This document shows, piece by piece, positions 26,968 through 45,345 of a stretch of DNA of 45,764 bases. The stretch comes from a virus: the IMG/VR virus record IMGVR_UViG_3300006052_000013; one strand, given 5' to 3'. The notes beneath the pieces are model-generated. The model was not told where the DNA came from. It ran no database searches and saw only the letters and a list, made by a program, of their open reading frames with translations. Position 1 is the stretch's first letter; every line of letters starts with the position of its first letter. The translations under genes were made by a program, and so were the position numbers.

Positions 26968-27004
26968 CTGTTTTTGAAAAATATGCCCGGCCCAGTTTCC
27001 TGGG
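26968..27004 (-). terminator. intrinsic terminator ending the small-gene array (minus strand)
   Basis: The reverse complement reads CCCCGGCCCAGgaaaCTGGGCCGGGC followed by ATATTTTTC. Confidence 0.55.
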
Positions 27005-27097
27005 CCGGGGTTTGCTGTATGACACGGGAACAACCCCGTGTCTGTTCGGAGAGGAACAACAGCAAAATCATAGTACACCGATTACGGTCTGGTGTAC

Positions 27098-27129
27098 ATT
27101 ACCACGGGTTTACCCGTGGCCCTCTGTTA
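27098..27129 (-). repeat. short intercistronic hairpin cassette
   Basis: ttACCACGGGtttaCCCGTGGccctctgtta. Confidence 0.6.
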
Positions 27130-27636
27130 TTCTCCGGTTTGTTCAAAGTGCCGGATACGTTCTTTGGTAATATTGACATACTCGGTAGTCCCCGGGGTGG
27201 CATCCCGAAGTCTTCTTTCAAAAGTTTCTGGCCAGTGACCTCGGCCGTAGTTGCGATAACCCCTTAAAAGAAACAAGCGTGCCGCGGCACTCTTATCTAT
27301 GCCAAGCCATTCCGCGGCGCGGTCGGGGGTATCCGTGTGAAAGATAAAATAAGATACGTCTGTTTCTTCATCTTTAATCGGTTTAACCTGTCCCGTCATT
27401 ACCAGAATATTTCCCGCCAGGCATCCCACCGTATTACAGGGGGGAACATCATCGGCCGTCGGCGAAAATTCTGATAATATTTGAGACACTCTTTTTTTCA
27501 AAACATCGCCTTCTTTGGCCGTTACTCCCCACAAACCCATGTTGAACCGAAGTGGTTCTTTCTCGATGTACTCAATTAACTGCTCGAGTTTCGCCACGGT
27601 TTCCGGGGATGGCTTTTCGTATTGTTGGTTTTCCAA
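27127..27636 (-). CDS. hypothetical protein (169 aa)
   Basis: TTG start with an AAGGAGAGG RBS. Confidence 0.45.
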   Translation of the reverse strand: MENQQYEKPSPETVAKLEQLIEYIEKEPLRFNMGLWGVTAKEGDVLKKRVSQILSEFSPTADDVPPCNTVGCLAGNILVMTGQVKPIKDEETDVSYFIFHTDTPDRAAEWLGIDKSAAARLFLLRGYRNYGRGHWPETFERRLRDATPGTTEYVNITKERIRHFEQTGE

Positions 27637-27651
27637 ATTCCTCTCCTTGAT

Positions 27652-27695
27652 AACGGAAGATATCCGTTACACCGGGTTTCCCCGGTGCCCTCTGG
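27652..27695 (-). repeat. short cassette, double-hairpin variant
   Basis: AACGGAagatatCCGTT + CACCGGGtttCCCCGGTGccctctgg. Confidence 0.5.
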
Positions 27696-27696
27696 T

Positions 27697-28209
27697 TTAT
27701 GCCGCCTTCTTTTTGTTGGCATTCCGGACTTTGACGCGACGTTGCATCTCGGCCGAACGTTCTTCCGGAGACATTTTGTCCCAGTAACTTTTCGCCCCGA
27801 TGGCAACTTTTGATTTTCTTTTGGTTTTCGCCCATCGCAATCGCTGGGCCTGGGCAATCCGGTTCCGTGCCGACTTGGACAGACGACGTTTCAATGGTTT
27901 GTCATCATGTGAACGAACATGAATCGTCGTCGTGCCAGGGGCGATTTCATTCCCTTGGTCGGTTGCTCCCCGCATCTGGGGCAAATGTTGGGTACCGTCC
28001 AATAACTCCCCGCGCGTCTCGGCGAGAAGAAGCGTTCCCACCCAATGGGCAGCGTCGGGCGGAGTGATCGCTCCGCCTGTCTCTGCTCCGAGGGCGTTAA
28101 GCTGCGCTTTGATATCCCGGTAAAGGTAACCGAGCCGGAATGCCGCAGTTTGGAAAATGGAATGACTTTCCTTAGTGCTCCCATACTGTTTTCCTCTCCT
28201 TGGTTTCAT
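27697..28209 (-). CDS. hypothetical basic protein (170 aa)
   Basis: ATG with a GAGGA RBS; K/R-rich C-terminus. Confidence 0.5.
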   Translation of the reverse strand: MKPRRGKQYGSTKESHSIFQTAAFRLGYLYRDIKAQLNALGAETGGAITPPDAAHWVGTLLLAETRGELLDGTQHLPQMRGATDQGNEIAPGTTTIHVRSHDDKPLKRRLSKSARNRIAQAQRLRWAKTKRKSKVAIGAKSYWDKMSPEERSAEMQRRVKVRNANKKKAA

Positions 28210-28223
28210 GTTTTTATCCTCAT

Positions 28224-28271
28224 AACGGACAGTAGTCCGTTACCGTGGGTTTACCCCACGGCCCTCTGTTA
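28224..28271 (-). repeat. short cassette, double-hairpin
   Basis: AACGGACagtaGTCCGTT + accGTGGGtttaCCCCACggccctctgtta. Confidence 0.6.
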
Positions 28272-28676
28272 CGCGAGTTCATTCATTGCACTAGCTTGTT
28301 CAAAATCCGACAACGTTCCCTCGAATGTTGCTCCGCAACTGCACGAAACTTTGTAGTCTAGAGAAAAACCATAGAACATTTTCGTTCCTCTTCCCTTGCC
28401 CTCGCTTTTTGTGGCCGGTTCTAAATCTGAACCATTACCATTGACGGAGAGGTCGTGTTCATCGCCCTCGTGGTCTTCGGGTACATACCCAGGAATATCC
28501 TGAGTTGCGCTGATATTTGCATCTTTCAATTCTTCGCCGCATTCGCCGCATTTCAATATTACTCGAACATCGGCCCGGACCTCGGCCGCGATGAGGTCCA
28601 CTTCCAAATCACCTTCTAACTCAACTTCATGGGGGTCTTCATAGGGAACAAACTTATTGCAACTTGGACAACGCAT
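28269..28676 (-). CDS. acidic Zn-ribbon protein (135 aa)
   Basis: CPSC...CGEC; starts at the M that follows the long leader. Confidence 0.5.
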   Translation of the reverse strand: MRCPSCNKFVPYEDPHEVELEGDLEVDLIAAEVRADVRVILKCGECGEELKDANISATQDIPGYVPEDHEGDEHDLSVNGNGSDLEPATKSEGKGRGTKMFYGFSLDYKVSCSCGATFEGTLSDFEQASAMNELA

Positions 28677-42942: not shown

Positions 42943-42947
42943 ATTCC

Positions 42948-43036
42948 TCTCCTGGTACAGCAACAAGAGATGTAATCTCTTGTTGGGATTTCCTCCCTTA
43001 ACTGTACTTACCGCGGAGTGATCCGCGGCCCTCGTT
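42948..43036 (-). repeat. long leader cassette (copy 7, variant)
   Basis: ctcctggtacagcaa-[caagagatgtaatctcttgttg]-ggatttcctcccttaactgtacttacc-[gcggagtgatccgc]-ggccctcgttca. Confidence 0.6.
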
Positions 43037-43443
43037 CAGGCAATCTTTTTCATATCCGTGAAGTAAACCTCACGGATACCGTCATGGTCATCCGCATCCC
43101 AGAACTCTTTATCAAGTTCTACGATGAACATTCCCCCACGTTCCGCCTCGACGATCTTGCCGACCTGCCGTGGATTATATTCATCCGCGGACAGTTCGAC
43201 TCGATCACCCTCTTTAAAGCCGCCGTAACTTGGCACGGTGGCCTCAACCGGGGGTGTCTTGGGTTTGGGAACGTACTCTTTCCTCAGCTTCATCGCCGAC
43301 CGAATCCGAACGCCGCGGTTGGTCCGAAGATTGGTTCCATTCCAACCTCCGTAGGAGGAAACGGAATCCAATCGGACGGGAACCAGTTTGTTACTGACTT
43401 TGACGACGTACGTCTTACCAACTTCTACCTCATTCTTTTTCAT
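43036..43443 (-). CDS. hypothetical protein (135 aa)
   Basis: RBS AGGAGAGGAACA. Confidence 0.5.
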   Translation of the reverse strand: MKKNEVEVGKTYVVKVSNKLVPVRLDSVSSYGGWNGTNLRTNRGVRIRSAMKLRKEYVPKPKTPPVEATVPSYGGFKEGDRVELSADEYNPRQVGKIVEAERGGMFIVELDKEFWDADDHDGIREVYFTDMKKIA

Positions 43444-43675
43444 TGTTCCTCTCCTTGAAATCCGAAATCACGCCGCGCGGGGAGGGATGGTTAGTTCCGG
43501 GGTCCAGTTGGCCTGGGCGCGGTTAGTTGGCTGATGTTCCGAACCGGGTGGTTGAAAAGGTGATTAACTAGTACTCACCTTTTGACCATCTCGGCCCACT
43601 TAGGCAACGTTGGCCCTGACGGCGAATGGGAAAGACCAGGATAACTCATACATCCCCGCCCGATGTAATCTCGGA

Positions 43676-43707
43676 CTTACCACCTCAGATGAGGTGGCCC
43701 TCGTTAA
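43676..43707 (-). repeat. short cassette
   Basis: cttaccACCTCagatGAGGTggccctcgttaa. Confidence 0.6.
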
Positions 43708-43976
43708 TCAACAACCCAACCATCTTTCACGATGTCCTCGAAACTGCGATAGGCCAACTGTTCCGCGTCCCTTAGATTTTTCAGGGCCTCCGTGTCAAAC
43801 ACATTGACTATGAAAAGAGTGAAGGGAAATTCTTTTGACTCCGCCAGGACGGCATAATCAGGCTTCTGTCCATTACGCCGGACCAGGGGCAGAAAAGGCC
43901 AACGTGGCCAGGAGTTCGGGTCTTTCAGGAAGTTCATCGTGATTTCTTCGAGACTAACCTTAACCAGTTTTTTCAT
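43704..43976 (-). CDS. hypothetical protein (90 aa)
   Basis: Internal ATG with an AGGAGAGGAACACA RBS. Confidence 0.45.
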   Translation of the reverse strand: MKKLVKVSLEEITMNFLKDPNSWPRWPFLPLVRRNGQKPDYAVLAESKEFPFTLFIVNVFDTEALKNLRDAEQLAYRSFEDIVKDGWVVD

Positions 43977-44030
43977 TGTGTTCCTCTCCTTGTTCCCGGT
44001 GCTCTTATCCAGGCTTGGGACTGGCGTGGC

Positions 44031-44087
44031 TTGGTATGGCAATCTGAGAGGTTTTATTCTCAGATTGGATTTTCCGCCCCACGGCGC
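44031..44087 (-). repeat. partial or divergent long-leader-like element at the head of the array
   Basis: ttggtatggcaa-TCTGAGAggttttattCTCAGAttggattttccgccccacggcgc. Confidence 0.4.
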
Positions 44088-45289
44088 ATTAACGACTGTA
44101 TTCAGGAGGAGAGTCCCTACTAACAGTCGCCCCTCTGCATGACCTTACGGTCATACACAGCGATTACCATCGGGAGGAGAGTCCCTTGGTAATCTATGGA
44201 CTATACAATTGTCTCAGTAATCTTGGAAACCATCCCAACTCCGATATAAATTGTGCACCGGAGTTATTTAGGCATTCTGTTCCAAAAGGTTTCATCTTTC
44301 TAGTTGATCCGGGGCGCATAACGCCGCTCAACTGTTTGGGAATGTACCGTCCGCGATGGGCACTCTGACATTCTTACTTGGGTCGTAGATCGTTGACAAC
44401 CGTCCGTCTTTCGGTTCGCTTTTCGTGGGGTTTAGCAACCAGTCTAACTGGGATCACCACTTTAAGAACCAGGTTTATCGAAACACCTGATTCTCGCGAC
44501 TCCTACTCGCAAGGCCCTCTGTGTCAATAGATTCTCCCGATTGCCGGGAGTTTGAACCTAGATTTTGCCACTACTCTTTATAACCTACATGCTCAGGACT
44601 TGGGACCTGATTCGGTCGTAGTGGACTTCACGCCTGGCTTTATCGCATTTCGCTTATTCCGGCGTGACCAGATAAAATCGGTACGTCCTATCCGGCGGTC
44701 AGAATACTAATCGCGCCATCCGGGACTTCCCGAAGACCGTGAGGTACGACCTGTGAACTCCACTGTGGGGTTTGGCCCACGCCTTAAATCTTCTAAAGCC
44801 AACTGGGATGTCAACATATTCTTACCTCCCGCCCGCCGTTGGAACCGTTCCAAACTCTTACGAGTTTTCAATGGACTCTCCGTCCCCGGTAGGGTCTGAG
44901 GTTGGCCCGAGTGTCTCTAATCTCGGATTTTTCTGAAGATTGGCAGATATTACAGTAATCGCCCTTCGTGCTTCTGGATTTCTCTTACGATCTCTGATGA
45001 CGGGAGTTTCCTCGGTCCCAGGGTTTAGATTCTCTCGAATCTCACGGGTGTCCGTCAAGTAGAGGTTTAATCGGCCGTTCATTCTGAGAAGGTACTCAGT
45101 TTTTCCCTATTCCCTTTTCCCAGACCGTCCCGTGACAGGCGCTTTGCTGGGTACTCGGACTCAGTTCCGAACTACCGAATCTAGATTTCAATGATCCACA
45201 AGGTCACCAGGTAGGGCTCCTATTGGTCTTCCCTGGTGCCTTAACCATAATCCGTTAGATTGGACATATCCATTATAACCTAGTTATGC

Positions 45290-45345
45290 CTTGATGAAAA
45301 AAAATATTTTTTCACTCATTTTTCAACTGTCTAAATTTAGACACA
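45290..45345. promoter_or_regulatory. AT-rich region with a perfect 14-bp palindrome gtctaaatttagac; candidate operator/promoter at the head of the array
   Basis: ttgatgaaaaaaaatattttttcactcatttttcaactgtctaaatttagac. Confidence 0.3.

Follow-up and report, generated by a model that had tools for sequence, protein, structure and literature searches.

Probable twister-derived RNA modules at the gene junctions of a small-gene array in an uncultured phage

Short RNA modules were found at most gene junctions of a long array of small genes on the minus strand of IMG/VR virus record IMGVR_UViG_3300006052_000013, whose whole stretch of 45,764 nt is called the window here. The modules are covarying structures at the RNA level. 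Very probably they are twister-derived RNA elements, that is, P4-less halves of the self-cleaving type-P5 twister ribozyme, and a complete twister lies in the non-coding leader that precedes the array. With regard to function, we lean somewhat towards the view that, by way of the modules, one early transcript is processed or stabilised at specific sites, as judged from their sequence and placement.

Structure and covariation of the junction module

Modules were searched for by repeat finding and by a scan combining a regular expression with a hairpin, and a covariance model was then built from 12 copies of equal length. The model gave 34 matches at E ≤ 0.01 (its E-values are rough), all on the minus strand and all within 27088-43712; the remaining 27 kb of the window and 10 kb of flanking sequence on each side gave no match. 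A 35th module was found by the regular-expression scan alone, and all 35 are inside the array. In coding-strand order, a junction reads stop codon, A-C, GAGGG, a hairpin of 6-8 bp usually closed by a tetraloop, U-A-A, G-U, often A-C, AAGGAGA and start codon. The module itself is 30-34 nt long and consists of a 2-bp helix P2, a GAGGG/UAA internal loop and the GC-rich hairpin P1. Helices, loops and the pseudoknots T1 and T2 are named here after those of the twister, and the modules are as follows.

Junction modules (U/A, predicted scissile position; AC or GC, dinucleotide at the T2 position)
43673-43704, minus, module P2-GAGGG-P1-UAA-GU-CC, U43679/A43678
43004-43035, minus, module, AC, U43010/A43009
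42650-42679, minus, module, U42656/A42655
42332-42361, minus, module, AC, upstream stop codon in P1 loop, U42338/A42337
42007-42036, minus, module, U42013/A42012
41535-41568, minus, module, AC, U41541/A41540
41248-41279, minus, module, AC, U41254/A41253
40928-40958, minus, module, AC, U40934/A40933
40647-40678, minus, module, UUCG loop, GC, U40653/A40652
40338-40369, minus, module, stop codon inside module, U40344/A40343
39954-39984, minus, module, AUGAGGG variant, U39960/A39959
39563-39593, minus, module, CAGAGGG..UAAUG-GC variant, U39569/A39568
39023-39056, minus, module, U39029/A39028
37396-37429, minus, module, UUCG loop, U37402/A37401
36901-36932, minus, module, AC, U36907/A36906
36634-36666, minus, module found by regular-expression scan only, stop codon in loop, U36640/A36639
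36196-36228, minus, module, UUA replaces UAA
35882-35911, minus, module CAGAGGG..UAAC, followed by a hairpin with L4-like loop UCGUCCCUCCAGGCC
35481-35514, minus, module, AC, U35487/A35486
35141-35173, minus, module, AC, U35147/A35146
34862-34895, minus, module, U34868/A34867
34091-34123, minus, module, U34097/A34096
33324-33355, minus, module, U33330/A33329
33026-33057, minus, module, AC, U33032/A33031
32863-32892, minus, module, U32869/A32868
32484-32515, minus, module, AC, best covariance-model score (53.8 bits), U32490/A32489
32125-32154, minus, module, U32131/A32130
30920-30953, minus, module CAGAGGG..UAAUG, U30926/A30925
30663-30694, minus, module CAGAGGG..UAAUG-GC, U30669/A30668
30382-30416, minus, module, U30388/A30387
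28997-29030, minus, module, stop codon in loop, U29003/A29002
28739-28768, minus, module CAGAGGG..UAAUG-GC, U28745/A28744
28236-28268, minus, module CAGAGGG..UAAC, U28242/A28241
27663-27694, minus, module CAGAGGG..UAAC, U27669/A27668
27095-27126, minus, last module, after the final open reading frame (ORF), ACAGAGGG..UAAUGU-AC, best junction match to Rfam Twister-P5 (29.7 bits)

Conservation is confined to the loop strands. GAGGG was present in 34 of 34 aligned copies and UAA in 33 of them (the remaining copy has UUA), both abutting P1 directly, and every position of the P1 stem varies among the 34 copies. P1 was nevertheless 100% paired, and all 7 modelled pairs covary, with a covariation score of 0.846 as compared with 0.188 in shuffled alignments; none of 500 shuffles reached 0.846, and the signal collapsed when the partners were slid by 1-3 columns. 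The two pairs of P2 also covary (AC/GU vs CA/UG), with counts of AU 21/CG 10 and CG 24/AU 5/UG 1. Altogether the module stems contained 228 Watson-Crick pairs, 10 G-U pairs and no A-C pair, these counts being taken from the alignment fitted to the model, in which the stems are unambiguous by eye. Among approximately 25 tetraloops, 10 were GNRA and 2 were UUCG, and the mean free energy of P1 was -12 kcal/mol. The asymmetry between G-U and A-C, together with the loop types, indicates that the structure was selected in the sense RNA and not in duplex DNA. A CRISPR-like array processed by Cas6 was considered and rejected, because the stem sequences differ at every position instead of being near-identical.

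Modules are placed tightly between genes. In 21 of the 34, the first base is 1-6 nt downstream of a stop codon, and in four the upstream stop codon lies inside the module. The Shine-Dalgarno (SD) sequence and the start codon of the following gene are 12-40 nt beyond the module; in 13 modules, those of the simplest junctions, 12-25 nt lie between the UAA and the start codon. The array has 43 internal junctions and a 3′ end. Nine junctions are without a module, and at eight of these the genes overlap or are ≤ 12 nt apart, so that the modules divide the array into about 35 units, each with one to four genes. A preliminary description of this DNA had placed the element at every junction and had suggested that it could make the region a platform for cassette exchange. 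The first statement is not exact, although nearly every cassette is flanked by a module; for the second, an element acting as RNA fits better, given the 10 G-U against 0 A-C pairs, the GNRA and UUCG loops and invariant flanks identical to the active-site loop of the twister.

The motif without an L4 loop occurred about once per strand in 527 kb of other viral DNA, and the number of modules in the array is thus far beyond chance. The pattern ACGAGGGCC-N10-18-GGTAAGTAC gave only single matches at chance level in IMG/VR, JGI metagenomes and 185k genomes, with no twister among them. Within the array, a 65-nt segment consisting of a module and an upstream hairpin (CUGCGA-NNN-UCGCAG) was duplicated at 92% identity (32487-32551 and 33327-33391), the two copies standing behind different small membrane peptides. 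This was the sole sign of recent duplication or recombination of modules.

Relation to the type-P5 twister ribozyme

A permissive Rfam scan of the region (E < 5) gave eight matches, seven of which were Twister-P5 on the coding strand. The consensus of this family is cGCA-GAGgG-(P1 hairpin)-UAA-UGCg-GC-...-(P4 hairpin, loop GUCcCAAGCC). The ten most conserved nucleotides of twisters lie in L1 and L4, which are joined by T1 and T2, and the bond that is cut, beside P1, joins a highly conserved A to a preceding U that is less conserved (PMC5408937, PMC6154101). Activity drops strongly when the pseudoknots, P2 or P4 are mutated (PMC6154101). Three twister-related elements were found in the leader, and a structured 5′ untranslated region (UTR) was found behind seven of the modules.

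44009-44139, minus, complete type-P5 twister, Rfam Twister-P5 30.0 bits, E 0.0006-0.008
44594-44609, minus, orphan P4 hairpin CAGG-UCCCAAGU-CCUG with an 'AAGUC'-type L4 loop, partial Twister-P5 match
44486-44523, minus, degenerate L1-P1-like module, CACAGAGGG-C-CUUGCGA..UCGCGAG-AAUCAGG
42943-43003, minus, three-way-junction 5′UTR (S1/S2/S3), then CCAGGAGAGGAA-AUG
39500-39562, minus, three-way-junction 5′UTR
34798-34861, minus, three-way-junction 5′UTR
32420-32483, minus, three-way-junction 5′UTR
32058-32124, minus, three-way-junction 5′UTR
30602-30662, minus, three-way-junction 5′UTR
28677-28738, minus, three-way-junction 5′UTR

The element at 44009-44139 has every defining part of the type-P5 twister (RF02684; Roth et al. 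2014, via PMC5408937 and PMC6154101). It comprises P2b UGCA and GAGGG (44139-44131), an 8-bp P1 (44130-44123/44099-44092) with a 23-nt loop, UAA-UGC-GC (44091-44084), P3 with a three-way-junction insert of about 60 nt (44083-44025) and a P4/L4 hairpin CCAG-UCCCAAGC-CUGG (44024-44009), whose loop is exactly GUCCCAAGCC. GGG can pair with CCC to form T1, and GC with GC to form T2; the predicted cut is at U44091/A44090. It was also the only unusually stable fold in the leader (z -5.4).

The 35 modules share with the type-P5 twister the full eight-nucleotide L1 (GAGGG/UAA), the U/A scissile site at P1 and P1 itself, and have 2 bp that correspond to the first 2 bp of P2. They differ from it in having no P4/L4, no double pseudoknot T1/T2 in cis and a P2 of 2 bp instead of about 4. 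The link between the two is given by the seven 'type C' junctions, in which the three-way-junction 5′UTR lies between the module and the ribosome-binding site (RBS). This 5′UTR is composed of an S1 helix, an S2 hairpin of the GAGGGGAAACCUC type and a variable S3 hairpin, ends in (U)GCCAUACCAGGAGAGGAAC-AUG and has covarying stems; it matched no Rfam family, and its homologue in the complete twister is the P3 insert. The type C junctions are colinear with the complete twister, P3 insert included, and differ from it by a 42-nt segment carrying P4/L4, from which it follows that the modules are homologous to a twister with P4 removed.

About 66 kb of the phage genome, which is approximately 100 kb in size, was examined, and the only L4 loops in it are the two in the leader; the hairpin-loop sequence CCCAAG occurs on the coding strand at 44019 and 44604 only. 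The second of these belongs to the orphan P4, which lies in a partial Twister-P5 match (44632-44594, 22.9 bits) with 26 model positions (GAGGG-P1-UAA) replaced by 8 nt. It is preceded by a P2a/T2-like ACG-AC and a linker and has no GAGGG-P1-UAA part. A permuted (type-P3) twister formed by the orphan P4 and the degenerate module at 44523-44486 was rejected, as the registers of P2 and L1 do not fit. Hammerhead and twister-sister ribozymes, the k-turn, the N4-type hairpin promoter and the extracytoplasmic-function (ECF) promoter were likewise rejected as identities of the modules on sequence and spacing. One junction, 35840-35911 (minus strand), has a hairpin after its module whose loop UCGUCCCUCCAGGCC resembles L4 (GUCCCAAGCC) and contains CCCUC, fully complementary to GAGGG; by its sequence, this junction may be an intermediate or a variant with a partner in cis.

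Complete twisters in comparable positions were found in other phages. A pattern for complete type-P5 twisters gave 62 loci in IMG/VR, and 34 twisters on seven contigs scored above the Rfam gathering score (38.6-66 bits). They form arrays in which a single strand carries as many as eight of them over 5-7 kb, and five within 1.4 kb. Arrays were present in IMGVR_UViG_3300036797_000094, 3300037524_001274, 3300019487_000339, 3300037486_000364 and 3300037424_001220. In these arrays, a small ORF (about 35-140 aa) stops 0-3 nt short of the twister, its stop codon often overlapping P2b (taGCAGAGGG), and the following ORF begins about 20 nt beyond P4 with a GGAG-type RBS in front of it, the codirectional elements recurring every 0.25-1 kb. 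The order of stop codon, twister, SD and ATG is the same as in the phage studied here, whose modules differ in lacking the P4/L4 that the complete-twister arrays have at every junction. In 527 kb of those loci, 81 complete twisters and three P4-less candidates were counted; two of the three have a variant L4, and one is on the control strand. The 35 half-modules are therefore unusual among phages with twister arrays. From these comparisons, the twister-punctuated operon of small genes appears to be a recurrent phage design, of which the window would be a derived version. No description of such arrays was found in the searchable literature, which did not extend to the original twister papers; reviews mention twisters near phage genes and suggest the processing of polycistronic transcripts.

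The gene array, its boundaries and the phage genome

Genes were called with a codon-usage log-odds model trained on the long replication genes (1-27000) and with a scan for RBSs. The array and its boundary elements are listed below.

27127-43976, minus, array of 44 codirectional ORFs (codon model and RBS scan)
29013-30362, minus, 449-aa protein with an ECF-type sigma N-terminus (Sigma70 r2 and r4; domain scan) and a long C-terminal extension
37429-38991, minus, 520-aa NAD/FAD-binding-like protein (weak NAD/FAD-binding matches)
30954-32057, minus, 367-aa protein
45329-45342, perfect palindrome GTCTAAATTTAGAC shortly upstream of the -35, local AT content 66-74%
45272-45300, minus, sigma70-like promoter TTTTCA-17-TATAAT, -10 at 45277-45272, 10/12 matches, the best of the region
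43977-45271, minus, 1.3-kb non-coding leader, no coding ORF on either strand
44173-44185, minus, GGGACUCUCCUCC, first copy, in a hairpin loop
44105-44117, minus, GGGACUCUCCUCC, second copy, in the P1 loop of the complete twister
26976-27010, minus, intrinsic terminator with a 10-bp stem (9 GC pairs), a GAAA loop and a T-rich tail, top-scoring on the minus strand

The 44 ORFs encode proteins of 26-520 aa, 41 of them under 171 aa, and nearly all have an AGGAG-type RBS. The in-frame codon score was positive in 43 of the 44 (mean 0.237 bits/codon) and strongly negative in other frames. The genes are mostly orphans. Three of the small proteins have two or more CxxC motifs (Zn-ribbon-like) and seven have a transmembrane segment, two of the seven being Flp-pilin-like (32551-32709 and 32892-33014). 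No homologue of the sigma-like protein other than itself was found among 5.8 billion clusters. The 520-aa protein had more than 100 cellular homologues at 32-47% identity and no phage homologues; the few that are named are mostly from Patescibacteria (Paceibacterota, Parcubacteria, Kaiserbacteria) at about 43% identity, which may point to the host or to acquisition by horizontal transfer.

In the leader, no ORF with a coding signal was found on either strand (maximum 0.098 bits/codon), no similarity was found in the phage database, and none to the array junctions was seen beyond the SD. Apart from the last 250 nt, it folds with ordinary stability. The reading of the leader as a known non-coding RNA or as a large structured RNA was rejected, as the only Rfam matches were those to twisters and the fold z was -0.2 to -1.8 outside the twister. 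The two copies of GGGACUCUCCUCC, each in a hairpin loop, are complementary to the GGAGAG(G) SD of the array and resemble the anti-SD of 16S rRNA; they could mask the RBS of the first gene until cleavage, or could tether leader RNA to the junctions. The palindrome is possibly an operator or an UP region. The terminator stem, CCCGGCCCAG-gaaa-CTGGGCCGGG, occupies 27010-26985 on the minus strand, with its T-rich tail at 26984-26976, and no strong sigma70 promoter or terminator was found in the scan of the coding strand of the array interior. Judging from these signals, the array looks like one early transcription unit that would be read as a single transcript from the promoter at 45300-45272 to the terminator at 27010-26976.

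Most of the preliminary description of this region holds. It had given about 45 codirectional small ORFs with good RBSs, close to the 44 called here, and had named the lack of a coding signal in the small ORFs as a ground for refutation; the codon scores show such a signal. The three large genes that it mentioned are present, the flavoprotein with weak signatures, and the ORF-poor proximal region and the only canonical terminator at the distal end were both confirmed, the former as 1.3 kb (45271-43977), the latter by a minus-strand scan. The palindrome in the AT-rich segment exists, one position away from the 45328-45341 that had been reported. 'Many' Zn-ribbon, transmembrane or Flp-like peptides was an overstatement in view of the 3, 7 and 2 counted. 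Of the likeness to the hyperplastic early regions of large virulent phages, two points are supported: this is a phage, and a sigma70-like promoter precedes what looks like an early-type unit whose small genes are mostly orphans. The organisation as DNA cassettes is not supported in the form proposed.

All substantial genes of the window are on the minus strand. Positions 1-27000 form a module for phage replication and nucleotide metabolism, with genes for PolA (family-A DNA polymerase), UvrD-like and SNF2 helicases, an AEP primase and a C5 methylase; genes for thymidylate synthase and dCMP deaminase are also located downstream of the array. Convergent lysozyme and large tail-like genes lie downstream of the replication genes. 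Upstream of the array are a divergent block containing regulators and a short six-gene operon, and the array has the first early genes on one side and the replication genes on the other. Identical sequence was found on ENA contigs of 71.7 and 99.5 kb, the latter being ERZ27247953:k141_4512440 with 99,551 bp, and also on JGI and Logan contigs. Sites with this phage are represented by JGI 3300027911 and 3300006162, ENA ERZ28007521 and ERZ27247953, and SRR5581440/1. The presence of the array together with replication and lysis/tail genes on the 99.5-kb contig identifies a phage, and the window is part of its uncultured genome of about 100 kb. Its DNA polymerase is at most 29% identical to that of any cultured phage. 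Megablast of the array region against 50,697 phage records gave no nucleotide match, and protein-guided scans of IMG/VR with the 520-aa, 207-aa and sigma-like proteins revealed no relatives of the phage.

Several other features of the genome were observed. A 14-nt tandem repeat, GGGCAACCGCGCCG, in a small upstream ORF (45723-45764, minus strand; compared with L012:3241-3268) has three copies in the window and the JGI contigs and two in the ENA contig, the sole difference seen between assemblies. A 79-nt stretch at 22650-22728, near an RNA ligase gene, is 97% identical in inverted orientation to L060:5126-5204, and this second copy lies about 5 kb upstream of the array promoter. A T4 Rnl1-like RNA ligase and a metallophosphatase are encoded on the minus strand at 22670-23818 and 9382-9948. 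The 2′,3′-cyclic phosphate and 5′-OH ends left by a twister would suit heal-and-seal repair enzymes, and a link of the ligase and phosphatase to the array is conceivable. An 851-aa protein (18149-20704, minus strand) contains a major-vault-protein (MVP) shoulder domain (PF11978, 1.5e-26) and has homologues at 48-55% identity on IMG/VR contigs of 41-317 kb (L006-L011). No modules were found on these six jumbo-phage contigs, where the synteny is different; clusters of 8-11 tRNA genes adjoin the MVP-like gene in L006 and L011.

Possible functions of the modules

In the proposed mechanism, the modules would punctuate a polycistronic early RNA, the long transcript being cut into short messages of one to four genes. 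Cleavage would take place at the conserved U/AA directly 3′ of P1; by the topology of type P5, this position is immediately 5′ of the leader of the next gene. The upstream message would then end in a protective P1 hairpin with a 2′,3′-cyclic phosphate, and the downstream message would begin with a 5′-OH shortly before an exposed RBS. As the modules are without P4/L4, cleavage at the 35 junctions would need an L4 from elsewhere, the two L4 hairpins of the leader being candidates and a protein the alternative. We infer junction cleavage, the source of L4 and the effects on mRNA stability and translation; for the complete twister of the leader and for the arrays of other phages, a processing function is likely, judging from their sequences.

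A specific form of this mechanism, which we consider possible but doubtful, is a split twister, in which modules inactive by themselves would be switched on by a leader L4 hairpin docking via T1 and T2. The L4 could be supplied by the orphan P4 (44609-44594), or by the P4 that the first message would retain at its 5′ end once the complete twister had cut itself. An L4 acting in trans or over a long range is favoured by the invariance of L1 and the covariation of P2, although the partner in cis is gone. Bimolecular twisters studied by crystallography tolerate a strand break in P3 (PMC5408937), the position at which a module and a separate L4 hairpin would be discontinuous. In the bimolecular env22 and env9 twisters, which tolerate strand breaks in both P1 and P3, the P3 helix tethers the strands (PMC5408937), whereas here a module and the L4 hairpin would be kept together by T1 and T2 (3+2 bp) alone. 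Among 83 complete viral twisters, T2 combined GC with AAGCC in 65 and AC with AAGUC in 9, and crossed combinations were not seen. AC is the commonest T2 dinucleotide of the modules (10-11 copies) and matches the orphan L4, the sole AAGUC loop, while GC, in 4 modules, matches the AAGCC of the complete twister. This match of modules to leader loops in trans is suggestive only.

Several observations weigh against processing by the modules. No P4 hairpin with the L4 loop (GUCCCAAGCC) was found at any of the junctions searched, and since L4 is lacking in cis and mutations of the pseudoknots or P4 are costly, the modules alone should be inactive. P2 is 89.7% paired, with just 2 bp consistent and no consistent extension, as compared with 4 bp in the Rfam P5 model. 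Only about 45% of the modules keep a T2 dinucleotide that can pair with either L4, the AC of the orphan hairpin itself could occupy its T2 site, and at junctions that have a second helix or a three-way junction, the predicted folds pair the UAA in part. All junction modules score below the Rfam gathering score of 37.6 bits, the best reaching 29.7. Those of the major variant, ACGAGGG..UAAGU as compared with GCAGAGGG..UAAUGC of the twister, were not reported by the Rfam twister model even at E ≤ 10. The complete twister, at 30.0 bits, is also below the gathering score, with the conserved A of the 'Aaga' linker unaligned; its low score was attributed to the long P1 loop (23 nt) and the P3 insert (about 60 nt). 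The leader as a whole showed no unusual fold stability or global structure. No diverged relatives of the phage were found in the collections searched, and every other contig with the array region (ENA, JGI, Logan) was 100% identical, with no covariation between strains. Moreover, we know of no natural precedent for a contact in trans of 3+2 bp without a tethering helix.

Much of this would be explained if the modules were twister-derived but non-catalytic, an RNA punctuation kept after the loss of P4, and this is the most serious of the alternatives, even if we hold it to be improbable on balance. Several roles could be served: a barrier to 3′-exonucleases, an insulator between cistrons, a site of ribosome hand-over (the SD-like GAGG stands right after the stop codon), or a site at which a phage or host protein, such as an endoribonuclease or an antiterminator, recognises the GAGGG/UAA loop by the hairpin. 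The absence of L4 in cis, the P2 of just 2 bp, the absence of T2 in about half of the modules, the UAA sequestered in a second helix in many junctions and the failure of the major variant to match at E ≤ 10 all agree with such roles, as does the stability of the hairpins (mean -12 kcal/mol). They leave aside, however, that L1 is constant in 34 copies (one UUA) while every position of P1 has diverged and P2 covaries, the pattern in which a twister active site is conserved; a protein would have to need, by chance, just the L1 nucleotides of the twister. In addition, the same transcript still contains an orphan L4 hairpin whose loop is intact.

Much less probable is that the element is a DNA-level recombination site for the gain, loss or swap of small-gene cassettes, similar to attC or PeSL. 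Nearly every cassette of one to four genes is flanked by it, the genes are mostly orphans, and the 65-nt module-bearing stretch was duplicated at 92% behind two different membrane peptides. The 10:0 asymmetry of G-U and A-C and the enrichment of RNA tetraloops are at odds with this function, and the constant nucleotides are those of a ribozyme active-site loop. attC sites are imperfect inverted repeats R″-L″/L′-R′ with a GTTRRRY R-box. Integron arrays resemble the present one in their unidirectional, small, promoterless ORFs, each followed by a hairpin element with variable stems, but depend on these repeats, the GTTRRRY core and an integrase; here the conserved flanks (ACGAGGG/TAAGTAC) are only 7-9 nt long, are not complementary and thus form no inverted repeats, the core is absent, and the window proteins that were scanned yielded no integrase. 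PeSL cassettes of T4-type hyperplastic regions, reportedly described by Arbiol et al. in 2010, are said to combine an early sigma70 promoter with a stem-loop and to have been proposed to serve DNA shuffling. They have in common with the array the small early ORFs with a repeated stem-loop element in a plastic region of a large phage, but carry a promoter within each element, whereas no sigma70 promoter was found in the junctions on the coding strand and ribozyme-loop nucleotides are conserved instead. No variant genomes showing exchange were found; recombination between the short conserved flanks is possible as a side effect.

Least probable of all, and hardly to be entertained, is that each element is a promoter (for the sigma-like protein of the array or a phage RNA polymerase) or a terminator that makes each cassette its own unit: two conserved blocks do flank a spacer and a sigma-like gene is in the array, but the block spacing equals the P1 hairpin length of 16-21 nt, too variable for a two-block promoter (within 1 nt), the spacer covaries as a helix, no U-tract follows the hairpin (tail UAAGUAC) so that only 27010-26976 fits an intrinsic terminator, and the element lies downstream of the promoter-proximal region of the sigma gene and contains stop codons of upstream ORFs.

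The proposed processing of the transcript at the modules has a counterpart in engineered operons. In pRAP of E. coli, a stem-loop, a twister and an RBS are placed between cistrons to yield monocistronic mRNAs by co-transcriptional cleavage, and the 3′ stem-loop is essential for expression (PMC9872166). The phage has the same layout of twister followed by RBS, and the logic of a 3′ hairpin, predicted here, is common to both. pRAP is synthetic, with complete cis-acting twisters and a separate upstream stem-loop, whereas in the phage P1 itself would be the 3′ hairpin. The phage layout is the one that engineers chose for converting polycistronic RNA into stable monocistronic messages.

The biological role of twisters, and of most self-cleaving ribozymes of bacteria and phages, has been called speculative (PMC5408937, PMC6765202). 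The present locus and the arrays of other phages place twisters at the gene boundaries of a long early phage operon, where their function is directly testable. The puzzle is that 35 copies keep the conserved catalytic loop and have shed the folding half, which survives only in the leader. A split twister, if true, would be the first natural trans-activated small nucleolytic ribozyme and a new mode of action, in which one RNA 'key' would time the processing of a whole early operon. Alternatively, the ribozyme core may have been exapted for a non-catalytic role. Both outcomes would be informative for RNA biology, phage regulation and the design of synthetic operons.

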